64,000 nt of DNA, taken from contig JAJZWY010000001.1 of assembly GCA_021846445.1 (NCBI GenBank), positions 23,379 through 87,378 on the forward strand, in the 5' to 3' direction. Within the stretch, counting starts at the first letter, position 1, and each line of letters begins with the position of its first letter. Position numbers and translations under genes: made by a program. Positions 8,120 through 64,000 of this stretch are shown one piece after another. This DNA comes from a bacterium (GTDB lineage Bacteria; Patescibacteriota; Saccharimonadia; Saccharimonadales; UBA4665). The notes beneath the pieces are model-generated. The model saw nothing but the letters and a program-made list of their open reading frames with translations. It searched no databases and was not told the origin of the DNA.

Positions 8120-8645
8120 TGTTTATAGATAAGTTCAGGGACATATTGAAGTTCTCTAGTTTAAATTAACAGAGAGCTTTAATCAGTGTAACAAAGCTAC
8201 ATAATAGCAAGTTCAAATCAAAATGACTCAAACGAATAATGAACCTGGTGTTTAGCGACGAAATCTCTAATGTTTCTTTGGTTTTCTTAAATGTGTTTTG
8301 TTGGATATTAGCAACAGCCCGTTTGGTGGTAGTAATAAATGTCTGAATATTGTCTAAAACTTCTGTTTTAACGGTAGTGTCAATAACCGAAAAGTTAGAT
8401 ATTTATTCATCTTCTTCTAATTTAACCATAACTGGTTGGCTATGAGTACATTGGGGATATTTTTAATGGTACTATGACAAAGGTTAAAAGTATTGGAATA
8501 ATCAACACTTTTACAGTCTCTTTTAGGAATAAGTTATTTCTCGAAGTAAGTAACTTTAAGTAGTTGACAGACATAATATTGTGGGTTACTTTATAAATAG
8601 ATAAACCCAATATAAAATAAACAAACTTCAATATAAGGAATATAA

Positions 8646-47645: not shown

Positions 47646-48635
47646 TTAGATAGAAGAAGCTATATTTGAAATTTGATTATTATTCAATGAACCATTATCA
47701 CTTATTAGATAAATTATTCCTTTATAAATCCAAGTAGCATTATCACTGTTGTTATAAACATAAACTTTAGCTGTTTTTGTGTTTAAAACTAAATAATTCA
47801 ATCCTACTTGGTTGATTACGTATTTATATAATAGTTGAGATGAGCTAATATTTGATTTTTTTTGAACAATCGAATAGCTTAGTCCATTAATATTATTTTG
47901 ATAAGATGATTCAACTATACCCGAGGCTGAACTAATTGATGATAGAGTATATCCAGATGGTTTATAGGATGAAGTTAATGGCCAAAACCCTGCTCTATAG
48001 GAAGCTATGATATATGGAATATCATTTAAGTTATATCTAGCGGGTGTAAAGATTATTCCTGCTCCAATCATTAAGACCAAAAGAGTAACTGTGCTTGAAA
48101 TAAGCGGATGCCTAAGGAAGAAAAATTTCTTTCTTGGAGGTTTATAGGCCGGAAAATCAATTGGGGCTTTATCAATAGCGTCTTCAAAAATGTTTGAGGG
48201 GTTGATTGTATTTTGATAATCATTTTGAATATTGTCGTCTGGAGTAATATTGGGGGTATCTTCCAGGTTGTAGCCATCTTGTGATAGTTCTTCGGGTTGA
48301 TCATTTATGAACGTAGGGGTAAGGCTTTGGTCCTGAAAGGTATTATTTAGACCATAGTTAGGGCTAACTTCTGTAGGTGGCTGAGGGGCAAAATCCGAAG
48401 CAGAATTGTTGAAAAGATTATATCGATAACGACTAATAATATTTTGTTTATCGTATTCGTTAAAATAGGCACTCTTGAAGTTATCTCCTTCTCTATTAAA
48501 ACTATAATCGGGTTCAGGGACTGACTCACGTCTTAGGGTTTTTGATCTTGAGGGACTTCGTCTTAAGCTGTTTGGAGTTTTAAAGTCCATAAATTTTTGA
48601 TTATTTTTATTTGAGCTAATATCCATCTTATCCAA
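47646..48635 (-). CDS. Hypothetical membrane protein with a disordered N-terminal half
   Basis: Low-complexity N/P/D-rich region, one TM (LISSTVTLLVLMIGAGIIF), then a ~130-aa extracytoplasmic domain. No motif recognised. Confidence 0.5.
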   Translation of the reverse strand: MDKMDISSNKNNQKFMDFKTPNSLRRSPSRSKTLRRESVPEPDYSFNREGDNFKSAYFNEYDKQNIISRYRYNLFNNSASDFAPQPPTEVSPNYGLNNTFQDQSLTPTFINDQPEELSQDGYNLEDTPNITPDDNIQNDYQNTINPSNIFEDAIDKAPIDFPAYKPPRKKFFFLRHPLISSTVTLLVLMIGAGIIFTPARYNLNDIPYIIASYRAGFWPLTSSYKPSGYTLSSISSASGIVESSYQNNINGLSYSIVQKKSNISSSQLLYKYVINQVGLNYLVLNTKTAKVYVYNNSDNATWIYKGIIYLISDNGSLNNNQISNIASSI

Positions 48636-48764
48636 TAAATCCCCTCAAACTGAATTTAACTTTTATTTACTATGTCTATATTAATACTACTTGTGATTAT
48701 CGGCAATAGGTAAGATAATAAAAGATAAACAATTTTAATTTTTGAAAGAATAATAATATTAAAA

Positions 48765-50234
48765 ATGGATTATCTAGATCCCCGAAAAAATTTTCAGAAT
48801 AAAGTTTTACTAATAACTGGATACATTTTAATATTTATAGCGATTGTTCTTGCTACGGTAGTCCTTCTTTATCAGTCATATGGGTATGGTATTCATGATG
48901 GTCGAGTTATTCAAAACGGGTTAATTTTCTTAAATAGTCAACCAAATCCTGCAAATATTTATGTTAACAATGTTTTTAAGGGAACAACTAATACTAATTT
49001 AACGCTAGAGAGCGGAGTATACAATTTTGAGTTAACCTTAAACGGCTTTAGAACATGGACTAGGAAAATCGAAATTGATGGTGGGACAATTGCCTATTAT
49101 GATTATCCCTTACTTATACCAGATAAGTTAAAGAGTACTATTATTAATAGTTCCTCAAACACTCCTTTAATTTTTACAGAAAGTTTAAATAAGCAATATG
49201 TCTTAATTCTTAATTCAGGATCTAATGATCTCTTCGATCTCTATAATCTAAGTAATAGCAAACCATCGTTAACTAAATTTTCCGTCCCCGCCAATATTAT
49301 TAGCAAAAATACATCTGGAACAAGTAGTTGGAATGTTATTGGTTGGGCAAACGATAATAGTCATGTCCTTCTAGAACATAGTTATGATGGAACAAAAACT
49401 GAATATATTCTATTAGATGTTACTAATCCAAGTAATTCCATTAATTTGTCTACACAATTTGCTTCTTTCTCGTTTAGCTCTATAAATTTTATTGATCTTA
49501 ATTATAAAAATTATTATTTATATAATCAGACTACCCAAACTTTAGATAGCGTTAGTTTATCTAATCCAGGAGTAGAGACAAATGTTTTGAACAACGTTCT
49601 TTCATATGACGGATACTTGAGCAACACAATTCTATATGCGACCACTGCTAATGCTCCTACTGGGCTTATTTATATTAATGAAATGCAGGGTAGTAATATC
49701 TATCATATTCGTACATTTCCTGCTGGATCGACCTATTTATTAAATATGGCTAGTTATGGTGGTACTATCTATGTTGCTGCGGGCTCTTCTGCCCTAGATA
49801 AGGTTTACATTTATCAGGACCCTGTATCTCAACTTCAAAATTTACCAAATCATGTACCGGTACCTATCCAAGTTTTATTTGTTAAAGACCCAAATTATTT
49901 AAACTTTTCAGAAAATAGTCAATTTATAGTTGCTGAAGGATATAACCAATTTGGAGTTTATGACTTTGAGAATTTACATGGGTATAATTACATTACTAAA
50001 TTGCCCCTTGATCCTCCTCAAACTCATGCGTTTTGGATGGATGGAGATAGGATGACTTATGTTTCGAACGGGAAGTTAATTATGTTTGAATATGACCATA
50101 ATTATAGACAAATCTTAGTACCCAGCTTAGCTAATTTTGCCCCAGCATTTGATTCAAATTATCATAATCTCTATACAATTTCGTATAATCCGATAACTAA
50201 AACTTATAATTTTGAGCAGACTTCTCTAATTTAA
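48765..50234 (+). CDS. PEGA-domain surface protein
   Basis: TM anchor, then PANIYVNNVFKGTTNTNLTLESGVYNFELTLNGFRTWTRKIEI (PEGA-like beta sandwich), then a large beta-rich domain. Confidence 0.6.
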   Translation: MDYLDPRKNFQNKVLLITGYILIFIAIVLATVVLLYQSYGYGIHDGRVIQNGLIFLNSQPNPANIYVNNVFKGTTNTNLTLESGVYNFELTLNGFRTWTRKIEIDGGTIAYYDYPLLIPDKLKSTIINSSSNTPLIFTESLNKQYVLILNSGSNDLFDLYNLSNSKPSLTKFSVPANIISKNTSGTSSWNVIGWANDNSHVLLEHSYDGTKTEYILLDVTNPSNSINLSTQFASFSFSSINFIDLNYKNYYLYNQTTQTLDSVSLSNPGVETNVLNNVLSYDGYLSNTILYATTANAPTGLIYINEMQGSNIYHIRTFPAGSTYLLNMASYGGTIYVAAGSSALDKVYIYQDPVSQLQNLPNHVPVPIQVLFVKDPNYLNFSENSQFIVAEGYNQFGVYDFENLHGYNYITKLPLDPPQTHAFWMDGDRMTYVSNGKLIMFEYDHNYRQILVPSLANFAPAFDSNYHNLYTISYNPITKTYNFEQTSLI

Positions 50235-51448
50235 GAAGTTTTGTTTTTGGATATTTTTCTAAATATATAGATAATTATTATAATCCCTAAGATCGAAAGA
50301 ATAGTTTTTCCGATTGAAGAGTTTATGAATCTATCCCAAAGAGTCGGACCGTTCCCCGGTAAATGGGTAGTTTGAGTAATTGGATTTTGGATTACTGATG
50401 GCTGAGTATTTGATGAAATATTTGGACTAATTTGCTCTCCGACAACAACCAGTCTATTAAGTGAAGTGCCTGGAGGATCACAAGTAATTAGTGTAGCGGT
50501 TGCTTGTTGCCCAAGTACTGGGCCAAGTACAGAAACATCACTAGGACTGACTATTTTTGTACTAATAACTTTGTAGACATAAAGGGTTCTGTTATATGTT
50601 AAATAAAAAGTGTCTCCTGGAACTAAATCATGTAAAAGTACAAAAGCAAACTTATATTTACCTGGATTAAATATATTATTACTGGAATGACCGAAAAATG
50701 CGGCGTTGCCGAATTGCCCAGGGTCGACTGTTGTTGGATAGTGAACTACTCCATCTTCCAAGAAATTTTCGATTGTCCCTTCATTGGTGGTGCTAATCGA
50801 ATAGTTCACGGGTATCTGAACATTAATTTTAGGAATTATAACTTCATTTGTAGATGAGGCTATTTGATTTGATGATCCTATAATTATAGGTATGGCCAAT
50901 TGATTGCTACTTGGTTGGATAAAAGGAGTTATTAAAACCTCGTTGAAAAAACCAAACATAAAAATGAAAATGGCCAAAAATGCTAAACCTAAACCAAATA
51001 ATAACGACTCCAGATGATGCTTAAGAGTTAATTTACCTCCGGCTGATAATTTATGATGAATATTTTTAGTAAGGGATCTTTTGGTTGACTGATTAGTAAA
51101 ATTATTTTGACCGATTATGGCGTTTTTCTGCCTGGTCATATTAAGCTCAAAGGAATCTATTCCAGCAGGCCTTTTAAGATTACGGTTACTAGCGTAAAAT
51201 TCATTCCAGACTTGTTTTTTTTCATTGTCCGATAAATGAATGTAATAGTTATGCCATTCTGTTTGAATGGTTACTATATCTTTTTGATTGTGGACTAAAT
51301 TATTTAAAAATTTCTGATGTTTGCTTTTTTGAGTAGTTTCTTGAAGTTCCTTAATTTCTGTTTGGACATTTGGCTCGTGTTGATTATTATAGATGTGACT
51401 TATTTTTTGTCGAATTAAGTTTTCTGCTGGTTTAAATTCATTATTCAT
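50231..51448 (-). CDS. Sortase-family transpeptidase
   Basis: Catalytic TLITCDP (TLxTC) and His region AAFFGHSS; both N- and C-terminal TM segments. Confidence 0.8.
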   Translation of the reverse strand: MNNEFKPAENLIRQKISHIYNNQHEPNVQTEIKELQETTQKSKHQKFLNNLVHNQKDIVTIQTEWHNYYIHLSDNEKKQVWNEFYASNRNLKRPAGIDSFELNMTRQKNAIIGQNNFTNQSTKRSLTKNIHHKLSAGGKLTLKHHLESLLFGLGLAFLAIFIFMFGFFNEVLITPFIQPSSNQLAIPIIIGSSNQIASSTNEVIIPKINVQIPVNYSISTTNEGTIENFLEDGVVHYPTTVDPGQFGNAAFFGHSSNNIFNPGKYKFAFVLLHDLVPGDTFYLTYNRTLYVYKVISTKIVSPSDVSVLGPVLGQQATATLITCDPPGTSLNRLVVVGEQISPNISSNTQPSVIQNPITQTTHLPGNGPTLWDRFINSSIGKTILSILGIIIIIYIFRKISKNKTS

Positions 51449-51536
51449 TTTAATCTGTATCTACTAGATAAGCATTTACCATTATAGTACAATTACATCT
51501 TAGGGGCTAAAGTTTTTAGACTCTGAGGGTTTCATG

Positions 51537-51621
51537 GGGCAAGTGGCGGAATTGGTATACGCGCACGACTCAAAATCGTGTTCCTTTTGGATTGAGGGTT
51601 CGAGTCCCTCCCTGCCCACCA
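51537..51621 (+). tRNA. tRNA-Leu (anticodon CAA), type II, CCA encoded
   Basis: Anticodon stem CACGA/TCGTG with loop CTCAAAA, a long variable arm, and T-arm GAGGG-TTCGAGT-CCCTC. The acceptor GGGCAAG/CCTGCCC has one A-C mismatch. Confidence 0.88.
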
Positions 51622-51640
51622 GTCGGATTTTTTATTTTAG

Positions 51641-52426
51641 TTAGATTGAATTGTAGATTCCAGATATGATTGCTTCAAATATACTATTTTCGTATATTGA
51701 TATATAGAAGCAAATAAAAGCACTTAATTTATTAAAGATTTGAAGAGGATCTACAGGGTTACTTAATTTGGTTAAAACTATTTTTTGATTATATATAAAA
51801 ATAATATTGTCGTCCAAAAGGCTAACAAGAGGCTGGTTATAGATTTTATTAAGTTTGATAAGTTTTTGATAAATCTGATTGAGATTATCTTGAAGGTTTA
51901 AGGTGGTTTGATGAGTTATAGACAGAAAGAATTTTTGAATTATGGGTAACGGTTGAATGATAATATTTAGATTATTCGAGATCGTTTGCGGTATAAAGGG
52001 TGCAGAGTCATTAACAAATACTATTTTTGGTTGTTTTGTTTTGTCAAGAAATCTTTCAAAAAGTAATCTAGTCTCTGCATTTTTTCCGAAATCTCCACCT
52101 AAAATTATAGAATCTGGCCATGAACTATAATCCATCAACTCAGCAAGCGCTTTTTGAGAAAAACTGCCACTCCGATTACTTGGCAAGAATATACCAACGT
52201 CTGAATCAATCTTGATTTCTTTTTTTAAAATATCTGGAAAGATAATTTTTATTGATCCGACCTTAGCCGTAAGTAGATATTCATAAATTGTAGCTATGTT
52301 TTTGAAATCATATTCATTTCCGCCGATCAATAAAATTTTACCAGCATTATTTCTGTTTTCTGGTTTTGCCCAAATTAAGTCTGGGTATAGAGGTTTAAGA
52401 TTTTCTTGAATCAATATATCAGGCAT
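51641..52426 (-). CDS. Hypothetical protein, distant YjeF-C / NAD(P)HX-dehydratase-like layout
   Basis: AGKILLIGGNEY...(A)KVGSIKIIFP and SIILGGDFGKN...IVFVNDSAPF mirror the GKVLIIGGS / VIGPGLG / LDADAL order of that fold, but they are degenerate. Confidence 0.35.
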   Translation of the reverse strand: MPDILIQENLKPLYPDLIWAKPENRNNAGKILLIGGNEYDFKNIATIYEYLLTAKVGSIKIIFPDILKKEIKIDSDVGIFLPSNRSGSFSQKALAELMDYSSWPDSIILGGDFGKNAETRLLFERFLDKTKQPKIVFVNDSAPFIPQTISNNLNIIIQPLPIIQKFFLSITHQTTLNLQDNLNQIYQKLIKLNKIYNQPLVSLLDDNIIFIYNQKIVLTKLSNPVDPLQIFNKLSAFICFYISIYENSIFEAIISGIYNSI

Positions 52427-52432
52427 CTTAAT

Positions 52433-53230
52433 TTAGATATTTAATTTTATAGCTATTGGGCAATGGTCTGAACCCATAATCTTTGGATAAATACTAGCAT
52501 TATCTAATTTAGGTCTTAATTTTTGGGAGATAAAAATATAATCTATTCGCCAACCGATGTTTCTTTCTCTAGCTCTGGCAAAATATGACCACCATGTATA
52601 GTGGCCATTCCCGTGGTGGTATTCTCTGAATGAATCAATAAAACCATTTTGGATTATTTTGTCTATTCCTTCTCGTTCTTCTTTAGTAAATCCTTTTTTT
52701 CCTTCATTAGGCTTGGGGTTGGCTAGGTCATCTTCGGTATGAGCTACATTCAGGTCACCACAAAAAATAACTTCTTTCTTCTGTTTTAGATTGAGCATGT
52801 ATTTTAAAAAAGCAGGATCCCATTGATTATGTCTTAATGGAAGTCTAGATAAATCATCTTTGGCATTTGGTGTATAGACACTAACTACATAAAAGTTCTG
52901 ATATTCTAGAGCAAGAACTCTGCCTTCATCATTAGGGTTTCCGTAAGGATCGTTTTGAAGGCCATATTCTTTAATAATTTCTTCTGGTAGTCCGTAGATT
53001 TCTTTTAGTGGTTTAAGAGTGCTTAAAATCGCTGTACCCGAATAGCCTGGTTTTTGGGCAGGATAAATGTATTCAAAGTAATTATCTAAATTAAAATTAA
53101 TTTGATTTTTGAAGGCTTTAATTTCTTGCAAACAAATTATATCTGGTTTATGTCGATCTATAAATTCCTGGAAGGTTCCTTTTTTTTGAAGTGCTCTAAT
53201 CCCATTTACGTTCCAGGAAAAAATGTTCAT
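52433..53230 (-). CDS. xth: Exodeoxyribonuclease III / AP endonuclease
   Basis: SWNVNGIRA, ICLQE, GDLNVAH and GSDHCPI. Confidence 0.92.
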   Translation of the reverse strand: MNIFSWNVNGIRALQKKGTFQEFIDRHKPDIICLQEIKAFKNQINFNLDNYFEYIYPAQKPGYSGTAILSTLKPLKEIYGLPEEIIKEYGLQNDPYGNPNDEGRVLALEYQNFYVVSVYTPNAKDDLSRLPLRHNQWDPAFLKYMLNLKQKKEVIFCGDLNVAHTEDDLANPKPNEGKKGFTKEEREGIDKIIQNGFIDSFREYHHGNGHYTWWSYFARARERNIGWRIDYIFISQKLRPKLDNASIYPKIMGSDHCPIAIKLNI

Positions 53231-53279
53231 AAAAAAAGTATAGCTTTGTTTAACTATATTTGCTAGACTCTTTAAAAGT

Positions 53280-53996
53280 ATGTCGCATGCTAAATATAAA
53301 AGGATTTTAATAAAAATATCTGGTGAACAATTAGCTGGAAAATTTGATTTTGGAGTTGATCCAGATATGGCCCATTATTTAGCCCTGGAAATCAAGAAAG
53401 TAGTTAAGCTTGGTGTTGATATTGTTATTATTGTTGGTGGCGGAAATATGGTAAGAGGTGCCCAAATTGCCCGAAAAGGGATAAAAAGAGTTACTGCTGA
53501 TCAAATGGGTATGCTTAGTGGGCTAATAAATTCAATGATTTTAACAGATATTTTTGAATCGGAGGGTCTTAAGGTAAGATGTCTTAGTAATGTGTTTGCG
53601 GATCAGATTGCAGAGCCTTATTCGTATAGGAGAGCCATTAAACATCTAGAATCGGGGAGAGTTGTGATTATTGCAGGTGGAACGGCCCGACCCTACTTTT
53701 CTCATGACACTGCAGCCGTTAGTTTTGCGCTTGAACTTGATGCTGACTTAGTATTAAAGGCCACAAAAGTTGACGGAGTTTTTGATAAAGATCCCAAGAA
53801 GTATAAAGATGCTCAAAAATTAGATTCAATAACATTTGAGCAAGCTCTAAGTAATTCCAAAATTGCAGTTATGGATAAAGCTGCTCTTGGTCTTGCAATG
53901 GAACAAAATAAACCAATTATTGTGTTTAACCCGTTAGAAAAAGACAACATCCTAAATGTACTTCTTAGGGGTGATGTCGGTACGCTGATTAATTGA
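53280..53996 (+). CDS. pyrH: UMP kinase
   Basis: KRILIKISGE, IVVGGGN and AGGT..PYFSHDTAA. Confidence 0.93.
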   Translation: MSHAKYKRILIKISGEQLAGKFDFGVDPDMAHYLALEIKKVVKLGVDIVIIVGGGNMVRGAQIARKGIKRVTADQMGMLSGLINSMILTDIFESEGLKVRCLSNVFADQIAEPYSYRRAIKHLESGRVVIIAGGTARPYFSHDTAAVSFALELDADLVLKATKVDGVFDKDPKKYKDAQKLDSITFEQALSNSKIAVMDKAALGLAMEQNKPIIVFNPLEKDNILNVLLRGDVGTLIN

Positions 53997-54343
53997 ATAA
54001 GTTAAATTGTTTAGGGGATTATTATTTTTTTTGGGAATAGTCTTAATGTCGAATATTTTTTGATAAAGAAAATTTATTAAATGAATATTTAGATGGTTCT
54101 TGACGTTACCTCTTGATAAGTTTGACGATACCAAATGCCTCCTTTTTTATAGCTTATTTTCCTTTGTAAAATAGAGATTCAAATTTTTCCTAAAAAAGCA
54201 ATCATTCTAACCCAGGTCTGGCGGTGTGTATTGGACGAAGTTCGAATGTATTTCGGGCAAAATCCGCAGGATTTTGACGAATGACACTTGCGCCTCGGCC
54301 GCCCAGTGCGCGCACAAGTCCGCCGCTAACGCTGGCGGCTCCC

Positions 54344-56335
54344 TTAACTTCTCCTTTGCGACATTGAATTTAGACTATTGAGATAATTTTTGAACCCCTG
54401 CTTTCCTTGCAGTTGGTTTTTTGCGTGATTACTTTTCTTATAACTAAAGTATTCCGCGTGTTCATCTGATAATTGATCTAGAAAGTCATGCGCTTGTCTC
54501 GCGCCACCGGATTTTAACGCAGTGAGAATGTGTAAACTTTTTCTGGCGCGAGTCATCGCAACATAAAAAGCGTTTTTCGTTACCCAACCCATATTCACAT
54601 TATCAAAACCGATAATAATTACATGATCAGCTGATAATCCTTTTGAACCGACGACTGTCATTAATTCAATGGCTCCCATCTTTTTTACTTCAATTTCTTC
54701 CAATTCTGCCTCCTCTTCTTCTTGATGTTCAATCTCCGTAACTTCCTTTTGGTTAATGGATTTTCTCTTAATATCGTCTTTTAACCGCTTCTTGTCGGAT
54801 AAAGAAATATGTCTAGCAATGCTTTCTATTTTTTGCTCTATTGTTTGCCCGTTTGTTTCTAAAATAGTCTTAATTTCATTAGATTTTTGTACTGCACTTT
54901 TGATTTCGGCGGCATCAAGATCATTAAAGTTTTGATTGTTTTGCATGGCCATCTCAATCAATTCATGCACCCTCGCTATTGCAACGTTTTCGTACTGTAA
55001 AATTTTACGGAAAGTGAAATTGTTTTGTGGGTTATTCGATAGCGAATAATAGCTTAGAATCTTGTGGTAGTCCTCTGAAAAATAGCGATTTTCCGCGCGA
55101 TATTCTGATACAAGCTCGTCTAGTTTCTTTTTCCCGTCAAACTTCTTATTTTTATAAAAATCCACTTCTTTTGCCGGAGTTAAAATGAGCAGAAAAGCGT
55201 CTTTTTCTTCTCCTTCGGTTAATTTTGCCTTTCGTTCATCAATCGCTGCTTTGTTATCCGCCACAAACTTTTCTATGTAATCAACCGCCGTTGGAGCAGT
55301 TGCGCAAGCAATCACTTGTACTTTAGGCTTATCATCAGCCGTTTTTATCGGTAGATAAATTTTTTCTATACACTCTGCTTCTCTATTTTGCTGAATAAAA
55401 TGGCCTGCTGACTTTGTGATATGAAAACTGCTCCGACCGCAGAAAGGTAACATGCCGTTTGCATAATCATTGTTTTGGTAAAGGTTCCGTATCAGAGTTG
55501 GCTTTCCCGATTTTAATTTTTCGTAAAGTACTTGTTCGTCATCGCCAACAATCAATAGCCCTCTGGGGTTATTAACTAGTTGTTTTATTAAATCGTCCTC
55601 GGCGGCATTAAAATCTTGATACTCGTCAATAATAAAGCAGCCACTCTCGTTAAGGTTTGCGTTTTCGGCCAAAGCGTCTTTCGCCCGCAAAATTAAATCA
55701 GCAAAACCAGCCGCATTGTAAAATTGGCACAGCTTAAAGTAGGTATCTTTCAGGCCACGCCATTCATCAGATTCATCAAACTCTGCATTATGCAACTGCT
55801 CCTCAAATTTTTTTAATGTATAAACACTGCGATCTAATCTAGCATAAAAAGCCAAGACATCGACCCACACAACATCTTTCCAAGACTGACCTATGATTCG
55901 GAAGTGTGGCTGAAAACGCCACTCTGTCGTACCATGATTTTGTTCAACGACACTTCGGGCAAATTTATGCAATGTATGAACTTCGACTTGATCTTTTTGT
56001 GCTTGGGTTAAATTTTGATCTCCCTGTATATCGCTGTCTAAATCTGCGACGAGCTTTCGGACAAAGGTGAGGCATAGGATTTTTGATGTTGAATTTTGCC
56101 CTAGCCAAAAACTAATCCTGCCCTTGAATAAGGTGCTTTTGCCCGTTCCGGGGCCAGAAACAATCAAAAACTTTCCCGCTCCGTGATTGGCAATAGCTGA
56201 AGCGTTTTGATTTCGGTATTCGGTACGTCCATTGTCGTCTAACGCATCAAGTTCGCTGTGTAAAGTTTGAAGCTCGTTTGATTCAAATGGGCTACCATCA
56301 TCGTTGATTAGATTTCGCATATTTCTTGGAAGCAT
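54344..56335 (-). CDS. SF1 UvrD-like helicase (AAA_19/UvrD_C-type), no nuclease domain seen
   Basis: Walker A SGPGTGKST, IIDEYQDFN, VGDDEQ and C-terminal SKGLSADHVIIIG...YVAMTRARKSL, with a long charged insert. Confidence 0.8.
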   Translation of the reverse strand: MLPRNMRNLINDDGSPFESNELQTLHSELDALDDNGRTEYRNQNASAIANHGAGKFLIVSGPGTGKSTLFKGRISFWLGQNSTSKILCLTFVRKLVADLDSDIQGDQNLTQAQKDQVEVHTLHKFARSVVEQNHGTTEWRFQPHFRIIGQSWKDVVWVDVLAFYARLDRSVYTLKKFEEQLHNAEFDESDEWRGLKDTYFKLCQFYNAAGFADLILRAKDALAENANLNESGCFIIDEYQDFNAAEDDLIKQLVNNPRGLLIVGDDEQVLYEKLKSGKPTLIRNLYQNNDYANGMLPFCGRSSFHITKSAGHFIQQNREAECIEKIYLPIKTADDKPKVQVIACATAPTAVDYIEKFVADNKAAIDERKAKLTEGEEKDAFLLILTPAKEVDFYKNKKFDGKKKLDELVSEYRAENRYFSEDYHKILSYYSLSNNPQNNFTFRKILQYENVAIARVHELIEMAMQNNQNFNDLDAAEIKSAVQKSNEIKTILETNGQTIEQKIESIARHISLSDKKRLKDDIKRKSINQKEVTEIEHQEEEEAELEEIEVKKMGAIELMTVVGSKGLSADHVIIIGFDNVNMGWVTKNAFYVAMTRARKSLHILTALKSGGARQAHDFLDQLSDEHAEYFSYKKSNHAKNQLQGKQGFKNYLNSLNSMSQRRS

Positions 56336-56352
56336 TCATGCTGTGCGGGCTG

Positions 56353-57522
56353 TTACCGATTACCTTTTGCACGATTGTGGGTTTTGCACAACATTTCACA
56401 ATTCTTTGCCGAAGTAGCACCGCCCTTACTCCATGCTGACACATGGTCGGCTTCCATTTCGCCAAAACTCCAAATTTTTTCCTTGTTAGCATCATGCCCA
56501 ACGGCGCAAAGTGAGCAATTTGATTTCTCTTTAGCTTCTGCTTCTTTAGTTTGTTTTGCGTAAACGGATCGTTTGGTCGCCTCATCAAAAACTCGAACAT
56601 CTAGCAATTTCGTGTCTTTTTCTCCACCAAGAATGTATTCAAAAATACCTCTGCGATTCTTGATATACGGGTCGCCATAGAGCTTATGTACCTCGGCTGA
56701 TATTTTGGCTGGGTTATATGATTTTTTGTGATACTCCTCATAAAGTCGTCCCCATTCAAGCCCGCGCATTTCGCTTTCTACGTCAGTAAATACGCTAGAT
56801 ACCCAGTCAATGACTGTGTTGAAATATTTTTTCAACTCATCAATGTTTTTGTCCTTACGATGTTTACTCATGTAATCGCCAATATTGCCCTTGCTTACCC
56901 AATCAAGAGCGCATTCCAAAAATTCCTGTCGGTTCGCACTGCCTGAAACATATGCACTCCATTTTTGAATGTTGGCGTTTTGGCTATTACTAAATTCTTC
57001 TTTGGCCTTAGTTACGAATGGACCAGAATACACAGCGTTGAGTAATTCCTGATTATTTAACGGAACACCTGCAATATTTATAGTCTTGAACCACTCTTTT
57101 ATTTGGCTCTCTGTGCCTTCGCACTCATAAATGAGTAGTTTCGTTTCCAAAATCTTGGTTTGTTTGTCTTTCGCCATACCGCCAAAGTATTGCTCCATGC
57201 CATTTTCGTCTTTAATGGCAAATTTGTCAGTGATAAATCGTCCAAGACTGGTGATGCGCTGTTGTCCGTCTAAAACTTCTAGGTTGTCGGCTGAAACTTT
57301 ATTGAAGTAGATCAATCCGATTGGGTATCCTTTGAGGACTGATTCGATAACGGTCATTTCTCTTTTACCGCCGTCAGACGCATAAATATAATTTCGTTGA
57401 TACTCTGGTTGAATAGTGAGCTTGCCAGACAAGCCAAACAAACCCTTGCCTTCAAGTTCGTTATAGACAAACCCATCACAGATTTCTTGAACAGTTATAC
57501 TGGTTTTTAGAATTGTTTTCAT
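56353..57522 (-). CDS. DUF262 (ParB-like NTPase) protein fused to a C-terminal HNH nuclease
   Basis: [14 protein letters not shown] (DGQQR motif) and C-terminal CSLC...[12 protein letters not shown]...[14 protein letters not shown] (HNH). The start was moved to ATG 57522, which is 1 nt after the MTase TGA and is preceded by AGGA. Confidence 0.8.
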
Positions 57523-57523
57523 A

Positions 57524-58633
57524 TCATTTTTTCCTGTGTTTAATAAATAACCTTTTGTAGACTTCTTTCCCATTCAAATAAGAACCTTTGCCGTATATTT
57601 TATTCGGGTCTTGGTCTACTCCACGATTTGAGCCTAAAATTTCAAATTGATCTGGGTTGTAATTATCTAAAAAACTAACTGGTACGCCCATCATACCCTT
57701 GTAATCACTTGGTATGTTTTTGACCAACGAAACCTCTATCGCATTATAGTTATCGTATTTCTCAAAAGGTTTTTTCGTTGTGAACTTTATCACTTCTTTT
57801 TCGGTCATGAGTTGAAGCGGTTCGTGACGGCGGCCATGATCGATATTTGTAAACCAACGAATGCCTTGTACTCGTGTTATATAAACTTTCTTTCCACTTT
57901 CGTTAGTCTTTACCTCGCGCACCTGTTCCAAATTGGCAATTTTTTCTGGTATCTCAAAAAACATCGCACCAGCATTGACCTTGTAGTTATTGCCCAACCA
58001 AACTTTGTTATCTCTAAGCAATGGAAATACTTCTTTGTAGGTAATTGCGTTCATGTTGCCAATAATCAAAAACTTTTTACCAAAATCAACAAGTTGTTTT
58101 ATGTACTCACGGAAAAGACTAAATGGAGGATTGGTTACCACAATGTCAGATTGTTTGAGTAGGTCAACGGACTCCTCGCTACGAAAATCACCATCGCCTT
58201 CGAGCGGTGTCCATTCGTTGTGTTTGTTTGTTCTTAACTGCTTGGCAACGTCTTTAAGATTAAACTCGCCATCGCCGTCTACGTCTTTTACTTTATTGAT
58301 AATAAATTTGTTGGCGGTTATTTTTGGACGACCCTTTACCTTCGTGATGGTTTTATCATCGCCAAATAATTGTAGTTGCGTGTTTGCGACAGGCGATGGC
58401 TTGTAGCTCGTCGTTATGAGTCGTTTTAATCTAAGTTTATTGAAATTTAGAACGAAATAACGAAAGAAATTGCTTTCAAACGGATCGTCGCAGTTGCAAT
58501 ACACCACTTTGCCTCGGAATACATTAGGGTCGTATTCCAAATACGCCTCAATTTCTTTTTGAATATCGCTATATTGAGTATAAAACTCGTCGTTTTTTAC
58601 CTTTTTTGCGTTTGTAAGAAATTCGTTCGCCAT
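57524..58633 (-). CDS. N6-adenine DNA methyltransferase, EcoRI-methylase-like family
   Basis: Motif [10 protein letters not shown], plus N-terminal KNDEFYTQ and [12 protein letters not shown] regions typical of this family. Confidence 0.75.
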
Positions 58634-58635
58634 AG

Positions 58636-58848
58636 TTATTTCAAAAGCTCGTCGCTTGATACTCCCAACGCTTGGGCTATTTTTTCAATGGTGGCAAGCG
58701 TAGGATTGCCTTTGCCCGCTTCAATATTGCTCATTTGAGCACGGTCAAGCCCGACCGCGCGACAAATGTCGCCTTGCGACATTTCCTTTTGCTCGCGTAT
58801 ACGCTTGATGTTTTTACCAAGTTTGGATGTTGGGGTTTTCATATTCAC
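58636..58848 (-). CDS. XRE-family HTH regulator in controller (C-protein) position
   Basis: 70 aa. LGKNIKRIREQKEMSQGDICRAVGLDRAQMSNIEAGKGNPTLATIEKIAQALGV is a canonical Cro/C1 HTH. It lies 2 nt upstream of the MTase gene. Confidence 0.8.
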   Translation of the reverse strand: MNMKTPTSKLGKNIKRIREQKEMSQGDICRAVGLDRAQMSNIEAGKGNPTLATIEKIAQALGVSSDELLK

Positions 58849-58969
58849 AGATGTATTCTAGCAAAATATTGTGTTGTATGACAATAATGTGATATATTAC
58901 AAGTATGTTGAATTTGAAGCGGCGGCAGCAAAACCAAAAATTTCCTTCCTTTCAAATTTTCCGCTTCGC

Positions 58970-58993
58970 GGCGGAGAGAGTGGGATTCGAACC
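58970..58993 (-). repeat. Partial duplicate of the tRNA-Ser(GGA) 3' end (att-like direct repeat)
   Basis: ggcggagagagTgggattcgaacc versus 60534-60557 ggcggagagagAgggattcgaacc. 23 of 24 nt are identical in the same orientation. Confidence 0.8.
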
Positions 58994-59046
58994 AATAATT
59001 ACATGCATCACTTTAACTACCATACAATTAAATTAATGGGGATATG

Positions 59047-59075
59047 TTGACAATAATGTCGCAGTTTGATACTAT
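59047..59075 (+). promoter_or_regulatory. Putative abiE promoter
   Basis: TTGACA (59047-59052), a 17-nt spacer, then TACTAT (59070-59075), ending 21 nt upstream of the abiEi ATG. Confidence 0.45.
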
Positions 59076-59096
59076 ATACAGTAGGAAAACTACCCT

Positions 59097-59681
59097 ATGC
59101 GTAACCAAACCAATATAGAAAAACTGATCACCAGTGGTAAAAAAGTTTTTACGACAGATGATCTAGCTGTCATTTGGGAAATTTCTGATAGAAAAAAACT
59201 TATAGGGCGCATTAAACACTATTTAAGACAACAAAGGCTTATACATGTCTATAAAGGCATTTACGCCTACGGAGACTACTCGGCCATGGATGTTGCCCAA
59301 AAGTTGGTACCTATGTCCTACATATCACTGTACACCTCGAGCCAGATACATGGTCTGACATTTCAATATTATCCAACTATATTTTGCATCTCACTCAAAA
59401 GCAAAAAATATGATATAGATGACCAAACTTATGAGTACCACAAAGTAAAAGAGGCTATATTCTTCAATAGTATGGGCTTAACCGAGGAAAATGGTTATAT
59501 TCTCTCAAATAAAGAACGCACCGTCTGCGATCTTCTGTACGTATTCCCTCATTTTGCTTTCGATAACTTGAGGGGTATAGATACAAATAAGCTCCGAGAG
59601 ATCTCCTATATTTACGAGAATAAACGGCTGGAGAATGATGTTTCTAAACTGATTAATATCATTGAAAGCGAGAATGAATAA
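59097..59681 (+). CDS. abiEi: AbiEi-family antitoxin/transcriptional regulator (type IV TA)
   Basis: About 190 aa with a winged-helix-like N-terminus (FTTDDLAVIW). It overlaps the downstream AbiEii-type nucleotidyltransferase gene, which is the canonical arrangement. Confidence 0.65.
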   Translation: MRNQTNIEKLITSGKKVFTTDDLAVIWEISDRKKLIGRIKHYLRQQRLIHVYKGIYAYGDYSAMDVAQKLVPMSYISLYTSSQIHGLTFQYYPTIFCISLKSKKYDIDDQTYEYHKVKEAIFFNSMGLTEENGYILSNKERTVCDLLYVFPHFAFDNLRGIDTNKLREISYIYENKRLENDVSKLINIIESENE

Positions 59682-60360
59682 AATGATAAACAGACAAAAG
59701 CATGAACAAATACTAAAAAGTATCTTGCGAGATATCTACACTAACCCAAGTCTCCAAGCTTCATTAGCTTTCAATGGAGGTACTTGTTTATATATATTTT
59801 ATGGGCTGGACAGATTCTCTGTGGATCTAGACTTTAATTTACGCTCCGATAAATTTGACTCAGACAAGCTCAATGGGATTATTCAAAAATATATCCAAGT
59901 AACAGACAGGTCTAACAAGCATTACACTTGGTTTTGGCTAGGTGGCTATGAAAAGACTCTCCAGAAAATAAAAGTTGAGGTGAGTAAAAGAGATTTTCCT
60001 GACAGATATATAAACAAAGACTTTTACGGATTGACCGTCTCTATATTGGAATCTAGTTGTATGTTTGCCCATAAATTATGTGCAATTACAGATAGAAAGA
60101 AAATACAAAACAGGGATCTATATGATGCTCACTTTATGTTCAATAAACAGTTTGACATTAATGAAGAGATTATTAAGTTACGAACCGGAAAAACGACTAA
60201 GGAGTATTTTAAAGAGTTAGTAACGTTTCTGGAAAAAGAGGTTACTGACAACAATATACTTGAAGGTCTTGGTGAACTATTGAGTGAACAGCAAAAGAAA
60301 AGTGTTCGTGCAACACTGAAAAGAGATCTTTTGTTTGATCTAAAAAGCCGACTCTATTAA
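59674..60360 (+). CDS. abiEii: AbiEii/AbiGii-family nucleotidyltransferase toxin (DUF1814)
   Basis: LAFNGGTCLYIFYGLDRFSVDLDFNL matches the F.GGT.L...RFS.DLDF core. ATG 59674 overlaps the abiEi stop (ATGAATAA). The ORF track opens at TTG 59662. Confidence 0.78.
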   Translation: MNKMINRQKHEQILKSILRDIYTNPSLQASLAFNGGTCLYIFYGLDRFSVDLDFNLRSDKFDSDKLNGIIQKYIQVTDRSNKHYTWFWLGGYEKTLQKIKVEVSKRDFPDRYINKDFYGLTVSILESSCMFAHKLCAITDRKKIQNRDLYDAHFMFNKQFDINEEIIKLRTGKTTKEYFKELVTFLEKEVTDNNILEGLGELLSEQQKKSVRATLKRDLLFDLKSRLY

Positions 60361-60444
60361 CTTAACTAGTAAAAATTCCAAAGCTTTGGGCTTTTCAGGG
60401 CTAAATTCGCAGTTCCAGACCAAGGTGGGGTTAGCTAAAAAAGT

Positions 60445-60472
60445 AAGCTCTTGAGACAAAAAGAGAGCTTTT
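60445..60472 (+). terminator. Possible intrinsic terminator after abiEii
   Basis: AAGCTCTT, a 10-nt loop, then GAGAGCTT followed by TT; 8 bp including one G-U pair. Confidence 0.35.
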
Positions 60473-60532
60473 GACAAGCTTTTTCTACCTATTTCATAGT
60501 CTTGACTTCTGTAAAAAGTTCCATAATCTATC

Positions 60533-60623
60533 TGGCGGAGAGAGAGGGATTCGAACCCTCGAGAGTCGTAAAACTCTACACGCTTTCCAAGCGTGCGCCA
60601 TAGGCCAACTAGGCGACCTCTCC
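60533..60623 (-). tRNA. tRNA-Ser (anticodon GGA), type II, CCA encoded
   Basis: The reverse complement folds with acceptor GGAGAGG/TCTCTCC, anticodon stem CACGC/GCGTG with loop TTGGAAA, an 18-nt variable arm, and T-arm GAGGG-TTCGAAT-CCCTC. Confidence 0.9.
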
Positions 60624-60732
60624 AAGTGCACTACCTTATATTTTACTGTAATTTAGTTGAATAAAAAATAAAAATTACTACAAAATTACCTTGTTATTCT
60701 ATCAATAAAAAGTTTAAACTATATCTTATAAT

Positions 60733-61602
60733 ATGTCATTAATTAAACTTCAGAACATCTCTAAAATTTATGGTTTTGGAGATGCGACTACCATTGCACT
60801 TGATGAAATTGACCTAAAAATCGAAAAAGGTGAATTTGTTGCTGTGATGGGACCGAGTGGATCCGGAAAAAGCACATTGATGAATATAATCGGTTTATTA
60901 GACCGTCCGACCATAGGTAATTATTTGTTTGAAGGAAAATATGTTTCTAGAATTAGATCAGATAGAGCTGCTAAGCTAAGGAGAGATTCGGTTGGTTTTA
61001 TTTTCCAGTCTTTTAACCTTTTAAATAGATTAACAGTGCTTGAAAATGTTTCTTTGCCCTTAATCTACAAGGGCTACGGCCAGTACAAGCGTTATAAGTT
61101 GGCGGGTAATATATTAGAAAGAGTTGGAATTAAAAATAGAGAGTATTTTTACCCAAATCAATTGAGTGGAGGTCAAGCTCAATGTGCAGCAATCGCTAGA
61201 GCTTTAATTAATAATCCGAAATTAATAATTGCTGATGAGCCGACCGGAAATTTAGATAGTGCCGGAAGTCGCTTAATTATGGAAATTTTAAGTGATATCC
61301 ATTCTATGGGAAACACTATTATATTTGTGACCCATAATCCCGAACTTACCCGTTATGCTACTAGAGTAGTTTATATGCACGATGGGAATATTATTTATGA
61401 CGAAAAAACGGCTGTTGGAAGAGTTGCCAAAAGGGCTAGGAAGACTTTATATACGATTCCTACAAAAACAATCGATGATGATTTAGAGGGTATTTCAACC
61501 TTAATGAAAGCAATACCACAACCAAATATTAGGCCGACTAAAAAGACAAAGAAAAGTCAAAAATATTCTAAAAAAGTAAATAAGAGAAGGCTTAAAAAAT
61601 GA
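60733..61602 (+). CDS. ABC transporter ATP-binding protein (MacB/LolD-type) with a Lys-rich C-terminal tail
   Basis: Walker A GPSGSGKST, signature LSGGQ and Walker B IIADEPTGNLD. The tail is RPTKKTKKSQKYSKKVNKRRLKK. Confidence 0.9.
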   Translation: MSLIKLQNISKIYGFGDATTIALDEIDLKIEKGEFVAVMGPSGSGKSTLMNIIGLLDRPTIGNYLFEGKYVSRIRSDRAAKLRRDSVGFIFQSFNLLNRLTVLENVSLPLIYKGYGQYKRYKLAGNILERVGIKNREYFYPNQLSGGQAQCAAIARALINNPKLIIADEPTGNLDSAGSRLIMEILSDIHSMGNTIIFVTHNPELTRYATRVVYMHDGNIIYDEKTAVGRVAKRARKTLYTIPTKTIDDDLEGISTLMKAIPQPNIRPTKKTKKSQKYSKKVNKRRLKK

Positions 61603-62828
61603 ATTTAATTAAAGGTTCTTATTTTAAGAATGCATTTGTAACTATTCGGAATGCAAAATTGAGAAATTTTTGGACTATTCTAGGTGTAATTATTGGTGTT
61701 ACTTCTTTTATCTTAGTTGTTGGGATTTCAGAGGGAATAAAGCTTCAAATTGCTACTCAGGTTAATCAATATGGAAAAGATATAATTACAGTGAGACCTT
61801 CTTTAGTTCAAGTATCAGGATCCAGTCTAGATAGTCTTTCTTTGCTCACTGGGGTAAATGTGTCTGGTTCATTATCTAGAAATGATCTTAAAATAATAGA
61901 AGGAAGTAAGGATGTTTCTTCAGTAGTCCCAGAAAGCGTTATGAGTGCAAAAATAGTTGGAACTCAAGGTAGTTATAGAAACGGTCTTGTAATTGGTACG
62001 ACTCCTAATTTTCTGAGTTTTTTAAATCAGAGTTTATCTTATGGTTCATTTTTGAACTCTAATGTAAGCTCGAATCAAGTTGTAGTAGGAAGTTCTGCTG
62101 CCGGAGAACTTTTTAATGTGGATGTGCCCTTGGGACAAACAGTTATGATCAACAATCAACCATTTGTTGTTGAAGGAATACTAAATCCCTTCCCTTCAAC
62201 GCCACTTAGCAGTGGATCTGAATTCAATAAAGCTCTTTTTATAACCTATAATCAAGCTATGGAAATGACCAATAATACAATAACAACTTATCAGATTATG
62301 GCTAAACCATCAAAACCCAATTTATTAGATCAAGCTAAGGGACATATTTATAATAATTTGCTTCAAAGCCACAACGGACAAAATAATTTTGAAGTATTAG
62401 ATCAAACTCAAAGTGCTAACTCTACTACTGGTGTACTCAAATTAATTAACAAGTTAATTATTGGACTATCGATTATATCTTTAACCGTTGGCGGTATAGG
62501 TATTATGAACGTTATGTTAGTATCGGTAACCGAGAGATATCATGAGATTGGAATACGTAAAGCCTTGGGGGCAACAAATAGACAAATATTGAATCAATTT
62601 TTAATTGAATCAACTACTTTATCTACCATTGGAGGATTGATTGGTATTATTTTAGCATATGTCATTGATTTAGTTATGAGAATGTTTACCAATATTCAGC
62701 CCTCTATATCTTGGCAAATAGTTGCCTTAGCATTTGGAGCATCGTTAATAGTTGGGGTCGTATTCGGAAGTTTACCTGCTCTAAAAGCAGCTAAAAAAGC
62801 TCCGATTGATGCTCTAAGAAGTGAATAA
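61599..62828 (+). CDS. ABC transporter permease (MacB_PCD plus FtsX domains)
   Basis: N-terminal TM, a large periplasmic-type domain, and a C-terminal FtsX core (GIGIMNVMLVSVTERYHEIGIRKALGA). It overlaps the ATPase gene by 4 nt. Confidence 0.85.
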   Translation: MNLIKGSYFKNAFVTIRNAKLRNFWTILGVIIGVTSFILVVGISEGIKLQIATQVNQYGKDIITVRPSLVQVSGSSLDSLSLLTGVNVSGSLSRNDLKIIEGSKDVSSVVPESVMSAKIVGTQGSYRNGLVIGTTPNFLSFLNQSLSYGSFLNSNVSSNQVVVGSSAAGELFNVDVPLGQTVMINNQPFVVEGILNPFPSTPLSSGSEFNKALFITYNQAMEMTNNTITTYQIMAKPSKPNLLDQAKGHIYNNLLQSHNGQNNFEVLDQTQSANSTTGVLKLINKLIIGLSIISLTVGGIGIMNVMLVSVTERYHEIGIRKALGATNRQILNQFLIESTTLSTIGGLIGIILAYVIDLVMRMFTNIQPSISWQIVALAFGASLIVGVVFGSLPALKAAKKAPIDALRSE

Positions 62829-62831
62829 TTT

Positions 62832-63437
62832 TTAGATATATTTACCGAAAAAATACCAAAAATGTTTAAGTATCAACATTGCTATTAATAGCAACCAGAT
62901 AATCACAATTTCAAGGTGATGTCTCCTTAAGAATTGGTAAAATGGTTGACATTTTTTGGTTATCTTTATGAATCCTGAGTCAATGTTATAAAAAGTTACG
63001 TATACAAAAGTTATGATTGTGATAACCCAAATTGACATACAATAGGGGCAAAGCGCGTTAATTCTGTAAACGCTCTCAAAAAAAAGCCAATGAACAAAAC
63101 CTATTCCTAGGATTGTCCCAAATTCAAGACCGATCCAGAACCACCTTTTAAAGGTAGCACCAGCTAGTATGGCTACCCCTATCGTTAATAGTGATCCAAA
63201 GGTAGCTAATCCAATGTATGGATTCGGTATTCCAAGAGCACTTCCCTCTTTCGATTGCATAACGTTTCCACAACTAACTATAGGGTTTAGGTCACAGATT
63301 GGTTTATAATTCGGATTTTGAATGATTTTGATTTGGTCGTAAGATAATGAAAACGCACCAAAAAGACCAACGATAGCTGAAACGATTAAGATATAAGGTA
63401 GAGCATTAGGAATTGTCCATTTCTTTAATAAATTCAT
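62832..63437 (-). CDS. Vitamin K epoxide reductase (VKOR) family membrane protein
   Basis: Loop cysteines CDLNPIVSC, active-site CPYC, and 4-5 TM helices. Confidence 0.75.
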   Translation of the reverse strand: MNLLKKWTIPNALPYILIVSAIVGLFGAFSLSYDQIKIIQNPNYKPICDLNPIVSCGNVMQSKEGSALGIPNPYIGLATFGSLLTIGVAILAGATFKRWFWIGLEFGTILGIGFVHWLFFESVYRINALCPYCMSIWVITIITFVYVTFYNIDSGFIKITKKCQPFYQFLRRHHLEIVIIWLLLIAMLILKHFWYFFGKYI

Positions 63438-63458
63438 AGTCTTATTCTAGCATAGTTA

Positions 63459-64000
63459 TTATTCTGCACATTGGTTTGAGGTTACTTTAGATGGGTATTT
63501 TAGAGCATACTCTAGAGGTTTTACGATTTGATTAGCACTGAGTGCATAGCCAACATTATTATAAGAAGTAGATTTTGCGAAAATTATCCCAACGACTTGA
63601 CCTTGTTGATTTATTAGAGGTCCACCTGAATTCCCGGGCATGACATCGGCTTTCAGCTCATAGACACTTCTTGAAGTATTTCCTTGTCCAAAAATATTTA
63701 ATCCGTAAGCTTGAATCTCGGCTAGAACTAAGGAAGGTTTAATAGATAATGGACCACCTCCAGGGTAGCCAAGAAACGCTGTTGGTGAATCGTTGTTTAG
63801 GGTATTACTATCAATAACTAAAGGTTTGTCGGTAAGATTTGACAATCTGAGTATGGCAAAATCTAAATTTGGATTAAAGTAAATTGGTGTTGCCCGGGTG
63901 CTACCATTATTATCATAGACAAATATTTTATTGACTCCGGCAATAACATGAGCATTGGTTGCAACTAAGTTCGGCCCTATAACGAATCCCGATCCTTCAA
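63459..64000 (-). CDS. Trypsin-like (S1/HtrA-type) serine protease, 5' end beyond the window
   Basis: Upstream of the listed TTG, the same frame continues as GSGFVIGPNLVATNAHVIAG (His) and DFAILRL (Asp). GNSGGPL provides the Ser. Confidence 0.78.
   Translation of the reverse strand, partial: EGSGFVIGPNLVATNAHVIAGVNKIFVYDNNGSTRATPIYFNPNLDFAILRLSNLTDKPLVIDSNTLNNDSPTAFLGYPGGGPLSIKPSLVLAEIQAYGLNIFGQGNTSRSVYELKADVMPGNSGGPLINQQGQVVGIIFAKSTSYNNVGYALSANQIVKPLEYALKYPSKVTSNQCAE

Follow-up and report, generated by a model that had tools for sequence, protein, structure and literature searches.

A probable fossil composite defence island between pyrH and tRNA-Ser(GGA) in a 0.7-Mb Saccharimonadales genome

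In a reduced genome of the order Saccharimonadales (G000; 697 kb, 33.5% GC, 11 contigs), whose size and gene content also point to a member of the Patescibacteria, 6.3 kb of defence genes and a displaced copy of a tRNA 3' end lie between pyrH and a tRNA-Ser(GGA) gene. The locus raises the question of how these genes entered the chromosome, by which type of recombinase, and whether in one event or in several. It was analysed within a window of 64,000 nucleotides (C5:23379-87378), to which the coordinates below refer unless another contig is named. The best explanation, given a probability of about 0.7, is that the 6.3 kb represent a fossil composite island whose two defence modules were acquired independently. 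The first, module 1 (54219 to ~58975), a restriction-modification (RM)/helicase cassette, would have been carried in by a large serine recombinase (LSR), and module 2 (58994-60532), an AbiE pair, would have been inserted site-specifically. An earlier note on this DNA had proposed two successive tandem insertions at the tRNA gene by an integrase since lost; two separate acquisitions are supported here.

Two defence modules and their borders

The intact tRNA-Ser(GGA) gene is located at one end of the island on the minus strand and ends at 60533. The sequence GGCGGAGAGAGTGGGATTCGAACC at 58970-58993 is a direct repeat of 60534-60557, identical at 23 of 24 positions; gene and repeat were found exactly where the earlier note had placed them. 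With up to three mismatches allowed, the 24-mer has two copies only in the whole window and none appeared in 100 dinucleotide shuffles, and 58970-58993 is the sole tRNA-Ser 3' fragment in the 697-kb genome. The repeat runs from the T-arm to the CC of the CCA end. The inner copy ends abruptly within the T-arm, with no tRNA similarity left beyond, and it is a real tRNA piece, because it has B-type spacing with the motif 18 nt from the core. Its single mismatch (A64) would unpair the T-stem; the copy being dead, the change may be neutral, or else it comes from a variant donor. Three further tRNA-Ser genes (tga, gct and cga) are clustered with tRNA-Arg on another contig of the genome (C11:19311-19687). 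The gct and cga genes share the 3'-terminal 28 nt of tRNA-Ser(gga) and are in principle equally good recombinase targets, yet no fragment copies are found there.

At the left end, TCTGGCGG is present at 54217-54224 and again at 60531-60538, and TTCGAA follows at 54241-54246. The earlier note had taken the whole 8-mer as the tRNA end with its native flank. As the genome contains 8 copies of it and 130 of TGGCGG, the 8-mer carries little weight by itself, and the 'TC' shared by 54217-54218 and the tRNA flank is probably due to chance. Position 54219 is a true element border, however, because an independent, 99.7% identical copy of the cassette ends exactly there. This copy lies on contig L042 (JAMCPD010000025.1; about 45% GC), which is titled Actinomycetota, its phylum being known from the record title only. 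Window 54219-58984 differs from it by 12 real single-nucleotide polymorphisms (SNPs) in 4.75 kb. TGGCGG (54219) is the exact point where the homology sets in; at the other end it breaks down at CCGCC-GCGAAGCGG, the position of the GGCGG that opens the inner tRNA-like 24-mer (58970). The left border of module 1 is an attR-type joint composed of an attP-type arm, the core TGGCGG and chromosomal flank, and the right border is the GGCGG of the 24-nt tRNA-Ser 3' fragment.

The two modules differ in composition when ranked against same-size windows of the genome. The composition check proposed in the earlier note set the RM/helicase block apart: at 39.8% GC against the genome mean of 33.5% it falls in the top 0.7%, and by tetranucleotide distance in the top 0.3%. 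The block is compositionally foreign, and the switch from AT-rich to GC-rich sequence reported for the left end is real (26% GC in the spacer). The AbiE block (34.7% GC) is compositionally ordinary and native-like. Gene calls confirmed that AbiE lies exactly between the two tRNA 3'-end copies, with the methylase/nuclease/helicase operon beyond the inner copy. Insertion footprints that begin in the T-loop are left by tyrosine integrases and also by the serine recombinases of the Dehalococcoides ssrA islands (PMC3146451). The 24-nt repeat around AbiE has the form of this classical footprint of a site-specific insertion with crossover in or near the T-loop.

Two separate acquisitions are indicated because the RM/helicase block exists without AbiE in L042, and AbiE is bracketed by the 23/24 repeat. 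In the proposed mechanism, module 1 would be a cassette carried as cargo by small elements of a family found chiefly in Patescibacteria (candidate phyla radiation, CPR) and inserted by an LSR at a tRNA CCA end. The LSR would have cut within the CCGCC(A) core, taking the tRNA T-loop (GGTTCGAA) as the motif for its zinc-ribbon domain, with a mimic of the T-loop 5 bp further out in the element arm. AbiE would have been inserted either after or before the RM cassette. In the former order, AbiE would have displaced the cassette-linked tRNA end; in the latter, the cassette would have entered a displaced fragment that still carried its original flank and hence a complete attB. The sequence agrees equally well with both orders. 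The AbiE-first order would also explain the position of the cassette at the distal copy, and it fits the unameliorated composition and the 99.7% identity of the cassette. The island is immobile, because the genome has no serine recombinase, the second arm of the cassette has been lost and no integrase accompanies AbiE. Its presumed role is defence by restriction and by abortive infection.

Site geometry and related elements

In serine integrase sites, the motif for the zinc-ribbon domain is found at positions 16-24 of attP and 11-19 of attB half-sites, a shift of 5 bp (PMC3783163). The distance from the core to the beginning of the T-loop sequence (G/A)TTCG is 18 nt in the tRNA arms examined (19 in L077); for a T-loop-like motif in the element arms of G000, G004, L042, L043 and L077 it is 23 nt. 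At five loci, attP accordingly has its half-site motif about 5 bp more distal than attB does; in the element arm of L098 the motif is 24 nt from the core by hand count. For TTCGAA at 54241-54246, present as the earlier note had it, the best reading is a recognition motif within an attP-type arm and not decayed tRNA, since a displacement of 5 nt against the tRNA is the expected attP/attB geometry. The junctions share only a short core (TGGCGG at 54219 and GGCGG at 58970, where the L042 homology breaks). An LSR, rather than a classical tyrosine integrase, most likely brought in the RM block.

Neither the window nor the genome encodes an LSR (Resolvase + Recombinase + zinc ribbon). PF00239 (serine recombinase) has no match in G000 and 1-12 matches in 44 of 61 relatives, and a search within the island for an LSR-like remnant found none. 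The sole PF00589 tyrosine recombinase of G000 is encoded by a 305-aa Xer-like gene on another contig. The loss of the integrase, as the earlier note had supposed, is supported.

The features of a tRNA-gene island of the Islander type are partly present. Such islands are defined by tRNA 3'-end repeats of this kind (PMC4383910). An intact tRNA gene is found at one end, and a relative (G002) carries an empty-site allele. The displaced 3' fragment is present for the AbiE module (23/24), whereas the RM module repeats only the 6-nt core TGGCGG. No integrase was detected inside the island by PF00239 and PF00589 profile searches of the genome or by the remnant search of the island.

Loci related to the RM cassette were collected with its nuclease, for which 527 relatives were found and the best 80 kept. 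In L042, the cassette is located beside a 516-aa LSR (PF00239, PF07508, PF13408) directly downstream of tRNA-Ser(GCT), and AbiE is absent. The order in L042 is the tRNA ending in CCGCCA, a 120-nt arm, the LSR gene oriented toward the tRNA, the inverted 120-nt arm, TGGCGG, an 84-nt arm (equal to window 54219-54302), the genes for C protein, methyltransferase, nuclease and helicase, the inverted 84-nt arm, CCGCCA and the flank. The 84-nt arm stands at both cassette ends of L042 as an inverted repeat, and G000 keeps only the arm at 54219-54302. Among the best 80 RM loci, this arm was sought in the other 79 and found only in L042, so the arms are element-specific.

The same RM family is found in twin-inverted-repeat islands at five further loci (L043, L098, L077, L068 and L045). 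The layout tRNA, LSR, RM recurs with unrelated arm sequences at tRNA-Gln (L043), tRNA-Ser(GGA) (L098) and tRNA-Glu (L077). Wherever the tRNA was identified, the junction core equals the 3' end of that tRNA: GAGCCA in L043, CCGC in L098 and TACCA in L077. Because the core tracks each tRNA's 3' end, a chance match is ruled out and an ordinary transposon is disfavoured.

In L042 (6809-13360) and these five loci, the LSR gene lies between near-perfect inverted repeats of 93-148 nt and the cargo between a second inverted-repeat pair measuring 84-198 nt. Both pairs meet at the tRNA-end core, which places an inverted, intact attP-like site inside the integrated element. The LSR open reading frames (ORFs) of L042 (6761-8308, minus strand) and of L031, the corresponding locus of G004 (6851-8791, plus strand), extend past the att junction onto the antisense strand of the tRNA gene, so integrated and excised elements would give the recombinase different C-terminal tails. 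The arm copies of L042 also encode alternative LSR tails.

The full layout, with cargo between a long inverted-repeat pair, is present in all six loci, whereas G000 has a single arm. The window cassette is 99.7% identical to the L042 cargo module; it differs in having one cargo arm, no recombinase module and a tRNA fragment at the position of the inner arm. The window copy is a decayed derivative of a twin-inverted-repeat LSR island. A full-text search of a literature library found no description of twin-inverted-repeat LSR cassette islands at tRNA genes. A wider reading, tentative and at a little under even odds, is that the RM/helicase block is non-autonomous cargo of a widespread family of LSR elements that target tRNA ends. 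Recombinase and each cargo would then form separate inverted-repeat cassettes joined at the CCA-end core, the block would have moved very recently between phyla, and the window copy would have been locked in after loss of the recombinase module and one arm.

The insertion site in relatives and the genes of the island

The convergent pair pyrH/tRNA-Ser(GGA) is conserved in the family, and the five species of the genus that were compared (G000-G004) show five different states at the site. In G002 the site is empty, and the pyrH stop is followed by 33 nt, tRNA-Ser(gga) and the same ABC genes. The earlier note had made its proposal depend on such an allele and on the match at 54217 being better than chance; the empty site exists, and the match marks the exact border of a mobile unit. 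In G004, the closest relative (pyrH 88% identical), the site holds a different 5.7-kb element (L031 2957-8652) with TGGCGGA at its pyrH-side border. This element encodes a 646-aa LSR (PF00239 + PF07508), and the LSR gene runs into the tRNA; its other products are methyltransferases, an APH-family kinase and an excisionase-like HTH_17 protein. Instead of defence genes, its cargo comprises two methyltransferase-like genes, of which one is RMKL/UPF0020-like, and a gene for an APH-family phosphotransferase. The element has no long inverted repeats. The possibility that AbiE is the remnant of a G004-like element was rejected, as the AbiE-to-tRNA spacer matches the 3' end of the G004 LSR gene over only ~6 nt by the core. 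The site is occupied by a 546-aa ORF of unknown function in G001 and by genes for an FHA protein and a PP2C phosphatase in G003.

The similarity of the spacer at 53997-54218 to the G004 spacer is limited to its first ~30 nt. In other genera of the family, the pyrH-tRNA interval contains clpB-like, GTP cyclohydrolase, NUDIX and further housekeeping genes. These genes rule out a family-wide hotspot, so the hotspot postulated in the earlier note holds for the genus and not for the family. Direct repeats of the tRNA end were sought in the relatives and none was found, which fits serine-recombinase junctions and provides no second example of the 24-nt type.

Within the species, exact-protein look-ups were made with the nuclease and with pyrH, and 24 contigs were read per look-up (of 35 and 47 indexed blocks). 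The same composite island was found unchanged in at least 24 contigs per look-up from NCBI, ENA and Logan samples, and no empty allele occurred among the contigs read. The island is real and fixed in the sampled population, and not an assembly artefact, because these contigs from several samples share the same structure. One contig (L134, ena:ERZ27237444:k141_1089781) was compared with window 48353-64000. Identity is 100% from 48353 through the tRNA-Ser gene, then falls to 89% and to about 78% across the ABC/MacB genes. The contig has either recombined, with a breakpoint at the tRNA, or been assembled as a metagenome chimera whose parts meet at this conserved gene.

The features of the locus are collected in Table 1. 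The genes for the C protein, methyltransferase, nuclease and helicase are contiguous on the minus strand, the first three in one operon, and module 1 is by homology a type II RM system under C-protein control, to which a UvrD-like helicase is added as an accessory. All island ORFs are intact, and the cassette proteins are 99-100% identical to those of the L042 copy. The helicase is shared only with L042 (99.4% aa), and no equivalog model reaches its cut-off for it. Although the helicase matches GajB models, no GajA-like (OLD-family ATPase-nuclease) gene is present in the island, and the label Gabija was dropped for want of this partner. In sister cassettes, AbiL or PDC-S06/LmuB-like (ATPase) genes take the same slot, which for this reason looks like a variable second-defence position. 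An Rfam search of the GC-rich stretch 54225-54343 gave no match.

The best 80 of the 527 nuclease relatives show 81-100% aa identity; most belong to Patescibacteria and some to bins of other phyla. This is unusually high conservation across many phyla, whereas the partner methyltransferase shows 43-99% and is absent or several kb away in some nuclease loci. The specificity of the RM system is not evident from site avoidance, because GAATTC (the EcoRI-family site) is only mildly under-represented in the G000 genome (observed/expected 0.74); the most avoided 6-bp palindrome is GGATCC (0.49). A 12-nt repeat, TGACAATAATGT, occurs at 58879-58890 and 59048-59059. The 58879 copy belongs to the RM cassette, as its stretch aligns at 97.8% with L042, where the sequence is visible, and the second copy overlaps the abiE promoter. 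The repeat possibly reflects promoter convergence or chance.

In module 2, AbiEi is followed by an overlapping gene for the AbiEii (DUF1814) nucleotidyltransferase, and by these matches the module is assigned as an AbiEi/AbiEii type IV toxin-antitoxin (abortive-infection) pair. AbiE is missing from all four same-genus relatives and from 58 of 60 other genomes searched. The only relative in the family, in G048 (70% aa), is not near a tRNA, and no tRNA was found on eight metagenome contigs with AbiE relatives (64-80% identity).

Table 1. Coordinates of features in and around the island
Feature	Position	Strand	Evidence
pyrH (UMP kinase), conserved left flank of insertion site	53280..53996	+	PF00696 at 6e-34; convergent pyrH / tRNA-Ser(gga) synteny across family
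AT-rich spacer, 26% GC; chromosomal (B'-side) flank of attR-type junction	53997..54218		composition; L042 homology stops before it
TGGCGG crossover core, left (attR-type) junction of RM cassette	54219..54224		equals tRNA CCA end (CCGCCA on tRNA strand)
attP-type (P) arm of RM cassette, with TTCGAA at 54241-54246	54219..54302		matches L042 8444-8527 and 13272-13355
UvrD-like SF1 helicase (GajB-like), variable accessory gene	54344..56335	-	PF00580 at 6e-27; PADLOC GajB/DRT helicase matches
Candidate type II restriction endonuclease, GmrSD_N/DUF262 + HNH	56353..57573	-	PF03235, PF01844; PADLOC REase_II at 1e-82
EcoRI-family N6-adenine DNA methyltransferase	57524..58633	-	PF13651 at 8e-124; PADLOC MTase_II at 1e-107
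Controller (C) protein, XRE-type helix-turn-helix	58636..58848	-	PF01381 at 3e-15; PADLOC Control_protein at 4e-16
Promoter/leader region of RM cassette, final stretch homologous to L042	58849..58969		alignment perfect up to CCGCC-GCGAAGCGG, collapses beyond
Displaced tRNA-Ser 3' fragment (nt ~52-75, T-loop to CC); GGCGG = right junction of RM cassette	58970..58993	-	23/24 vs live gene; B-type (attB) motif spacing
AbiE module, with 103-nt and 172-nt non-coding ends	58994..60532	+	PADLOC + PF08843; no recombinase
AbiEi	59097-59681	+	PADLOC AbiEi at 1e-39
AbiEii	59662-60360	+	PADLOC AbiEii at 9e-55; PF08843
Intact tRNA-Ser(GGA), integration target, encoded CCA	60533..60623	-	ARAGORN; Rfam RF00005 at 50.6 bits; conserved in all relatives
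ABC ATPase + MacB-like permease, conserved right flank	60733..62828	+	same genes after tRNA in G002 and G004

Alternative explanations and known systems

Several observations weigh against the two-module explanation. The P'-side sequence (GCGAAGCGG...) shows no clear half-site motif, so the right junction could be a microhomology-mediated deletion and not an LSR crossover. The window has no recombinase, and the mechanism is therefore inferred from other genomes. In L042, AATTT flanks both 84-nt inverted repeats and is readable as a 5-bp transposon target duplication. The gene blocks of G001 and G003 at the site are not obviously mobile. No AbiE relative adjoining a tRNA or an integrase was found in the genomes and contigs searched, which leaves the repeat as the whole of the evidence for the entry mode of AbiE.

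The origin of AbiE bears on the first alternative, in which AbiE is older resident DNA and the 24-mer a relic of a partial tRNA-Ser duplication or of an illegitimate recombination that deleted the recombinase module. Its native-like composition and the lack of an integrase or of att-bearing relatives agree with this, as do the three other tRNA-Ser genes with the same 3' 28 nt, which could seed recombination, and a cassette/fragment joint marked by short CCGCC microhomology only. However, the copy stops sharply inside the T-arm, as is typical of att sites, AbiE is missing from the relatives counted above, and the empty-site allele carries neither module, which makes a resident AbiE unlikely. 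Classical tandem tyrosine-integrase islands, with 54217-54250 as a heavily decayed third copy of the tRNA end, would account for a 24-nt repeat that begins in the T-loop, the classical footprint. The left end past TGGCGG is nevertheless 99-100% identical to the L042 cassette arm, and hence element sequence, TTCGAA is offset by 5 nt, and the recombinases beside the cassette and at the site in relatives are all serine recombinases. Tyrosine integration is disfavoured for module 1, and as an account of the whole island it is quite unlikely.

Transposition is a further alternative: the RM/helicase block could be a transposase-less inverted-repeat transposon of the mobile-insertion-cassette kind, moved in trans by a DDE transposase and placed near the tRNA by chance, with TGGCGG coincidental. 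The terminal inverted repeats of L042 (84-89 nt) with AATTT on both sides would suit such a unit, and RM units with long inverted repeats and short target duplications have been described (PMC2853133). Yet in G000, G004 and L042 the element terminates in the hexamer of the tRNA end, which switches to that of tRNA-Gln (GAGCCA) in L043 and tRNA-Glu (TACCA) in L077, the constant neighbour is an LSR and not a transposase, and the arms show attP-type motif spacing, so that this explanation is very improbable. The chance that a foreign block was misjoined into the contig during assembly or binning is practically negligible. A 99.7% identical copy does exist in another bin and L134 drops from 100% to about 78% identity at the tRNA, but both flanks are syntenic with relatives, the identical structure recurs in at least 24 contigs (NCBI, ENA, Logan), and 12 SNPs separate the window from the L042 copy.

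The two-module explanation relates the island to several known systems. In Dehalococcoides, ssrA islands are integrated by DsiB, a CcrB-like LSR, and occur in tandem, some of them without an integration module (McMurdie 2011, PMC3146451). In both cases the genome is streamlined and the islands stand in tandem behind a single small RNA gene. Further shared traits are integration by a serine recombinase, borders each marked by a direct repeat (~20 bp) that copies the 3' end of the gene from within the T-loop, and some islands without an integration module that are fixed or only cis-mobilizable. In contrast, the target here is tRNA-Ser and not transfer-messenger RNA (tmRNA), no recombinase is left in the whole genome, the borders of module 1 consist of a 5-6-nt core instead of a 20-bp repeat, and the cargo consists of defence genes and not dehalogenases.

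The phage large serine integrases A118/LI, Bxb1 and phiC31 (Rutherford 2013, PMC3783163) likewise have a short crossover core as the only identity between element and target, and a motif 5 bp nearer the centre in attB than in attP. The Resolvase, Recombinase and Zn_ribbon set recurs in the LSR of L042; the likeness here is one of sequence. The elements of the present family differ in that they measure about 5-6.5 kb without phage genes, their attB motif is the universal tRNA T-loop, and intact relatives carry a second, inverted attP-like copy inside the element, which the phages do not.

Among mobile RM forms (Furuta, Abe & Kobayashi 2010, PMC2853133), RM units between long inverted repeats have been reported, and the portion of that survey concerned with tRNA genes includes RM with an integrase homolog in a tRNA gene with 3'-end repeats. 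They differ from the present island in that, within that portion, the integrase of one tRNA case is of the tyrosine type and others show strong or weak integrase similarity, and the inverted-repeat cases as given there had no recombinase assigned. The accretion of cis-mobilizable elements (CIMEs), as cited in PMC3146451, similarly involves att-flanked modules without recombination genes of their own, stacked at one target; by comparison with that account, the present genome has no cognate recombinase and one att arm of module 1 is missing. Tandem and partly integrase-less small-RNA islands, mobile RM units and serine integrase geometry are already described, and the window adds a decayed member.

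The locus is an example, dated by identity, of a 0.7-Mb genome gaining and then fixing defence genes, which enter through one tRNA-linked point used by serine recombinases. It provides explicit attB/attP predictions for a recombinase family of uncultivated bacteria, namely a CCGCCA core, an offset of 5 bp and the tRNA T-loop as the zinc-ribbon motif. That a bin of another phylum, as given by its record title only, contains an almost identical cassette is a hint that genes have recently passed between ultra-small bacteria and their potential hosts. If the cassette is non-autonomous cargo of the wider LSR family, such cassettes would have crossed phyla very recently, with 12 SNPs in 4.75 kb against the bin titled Actinomycetota, and the window would show one of them locking into a reduced genome after the recombinase module and one arm were lost.

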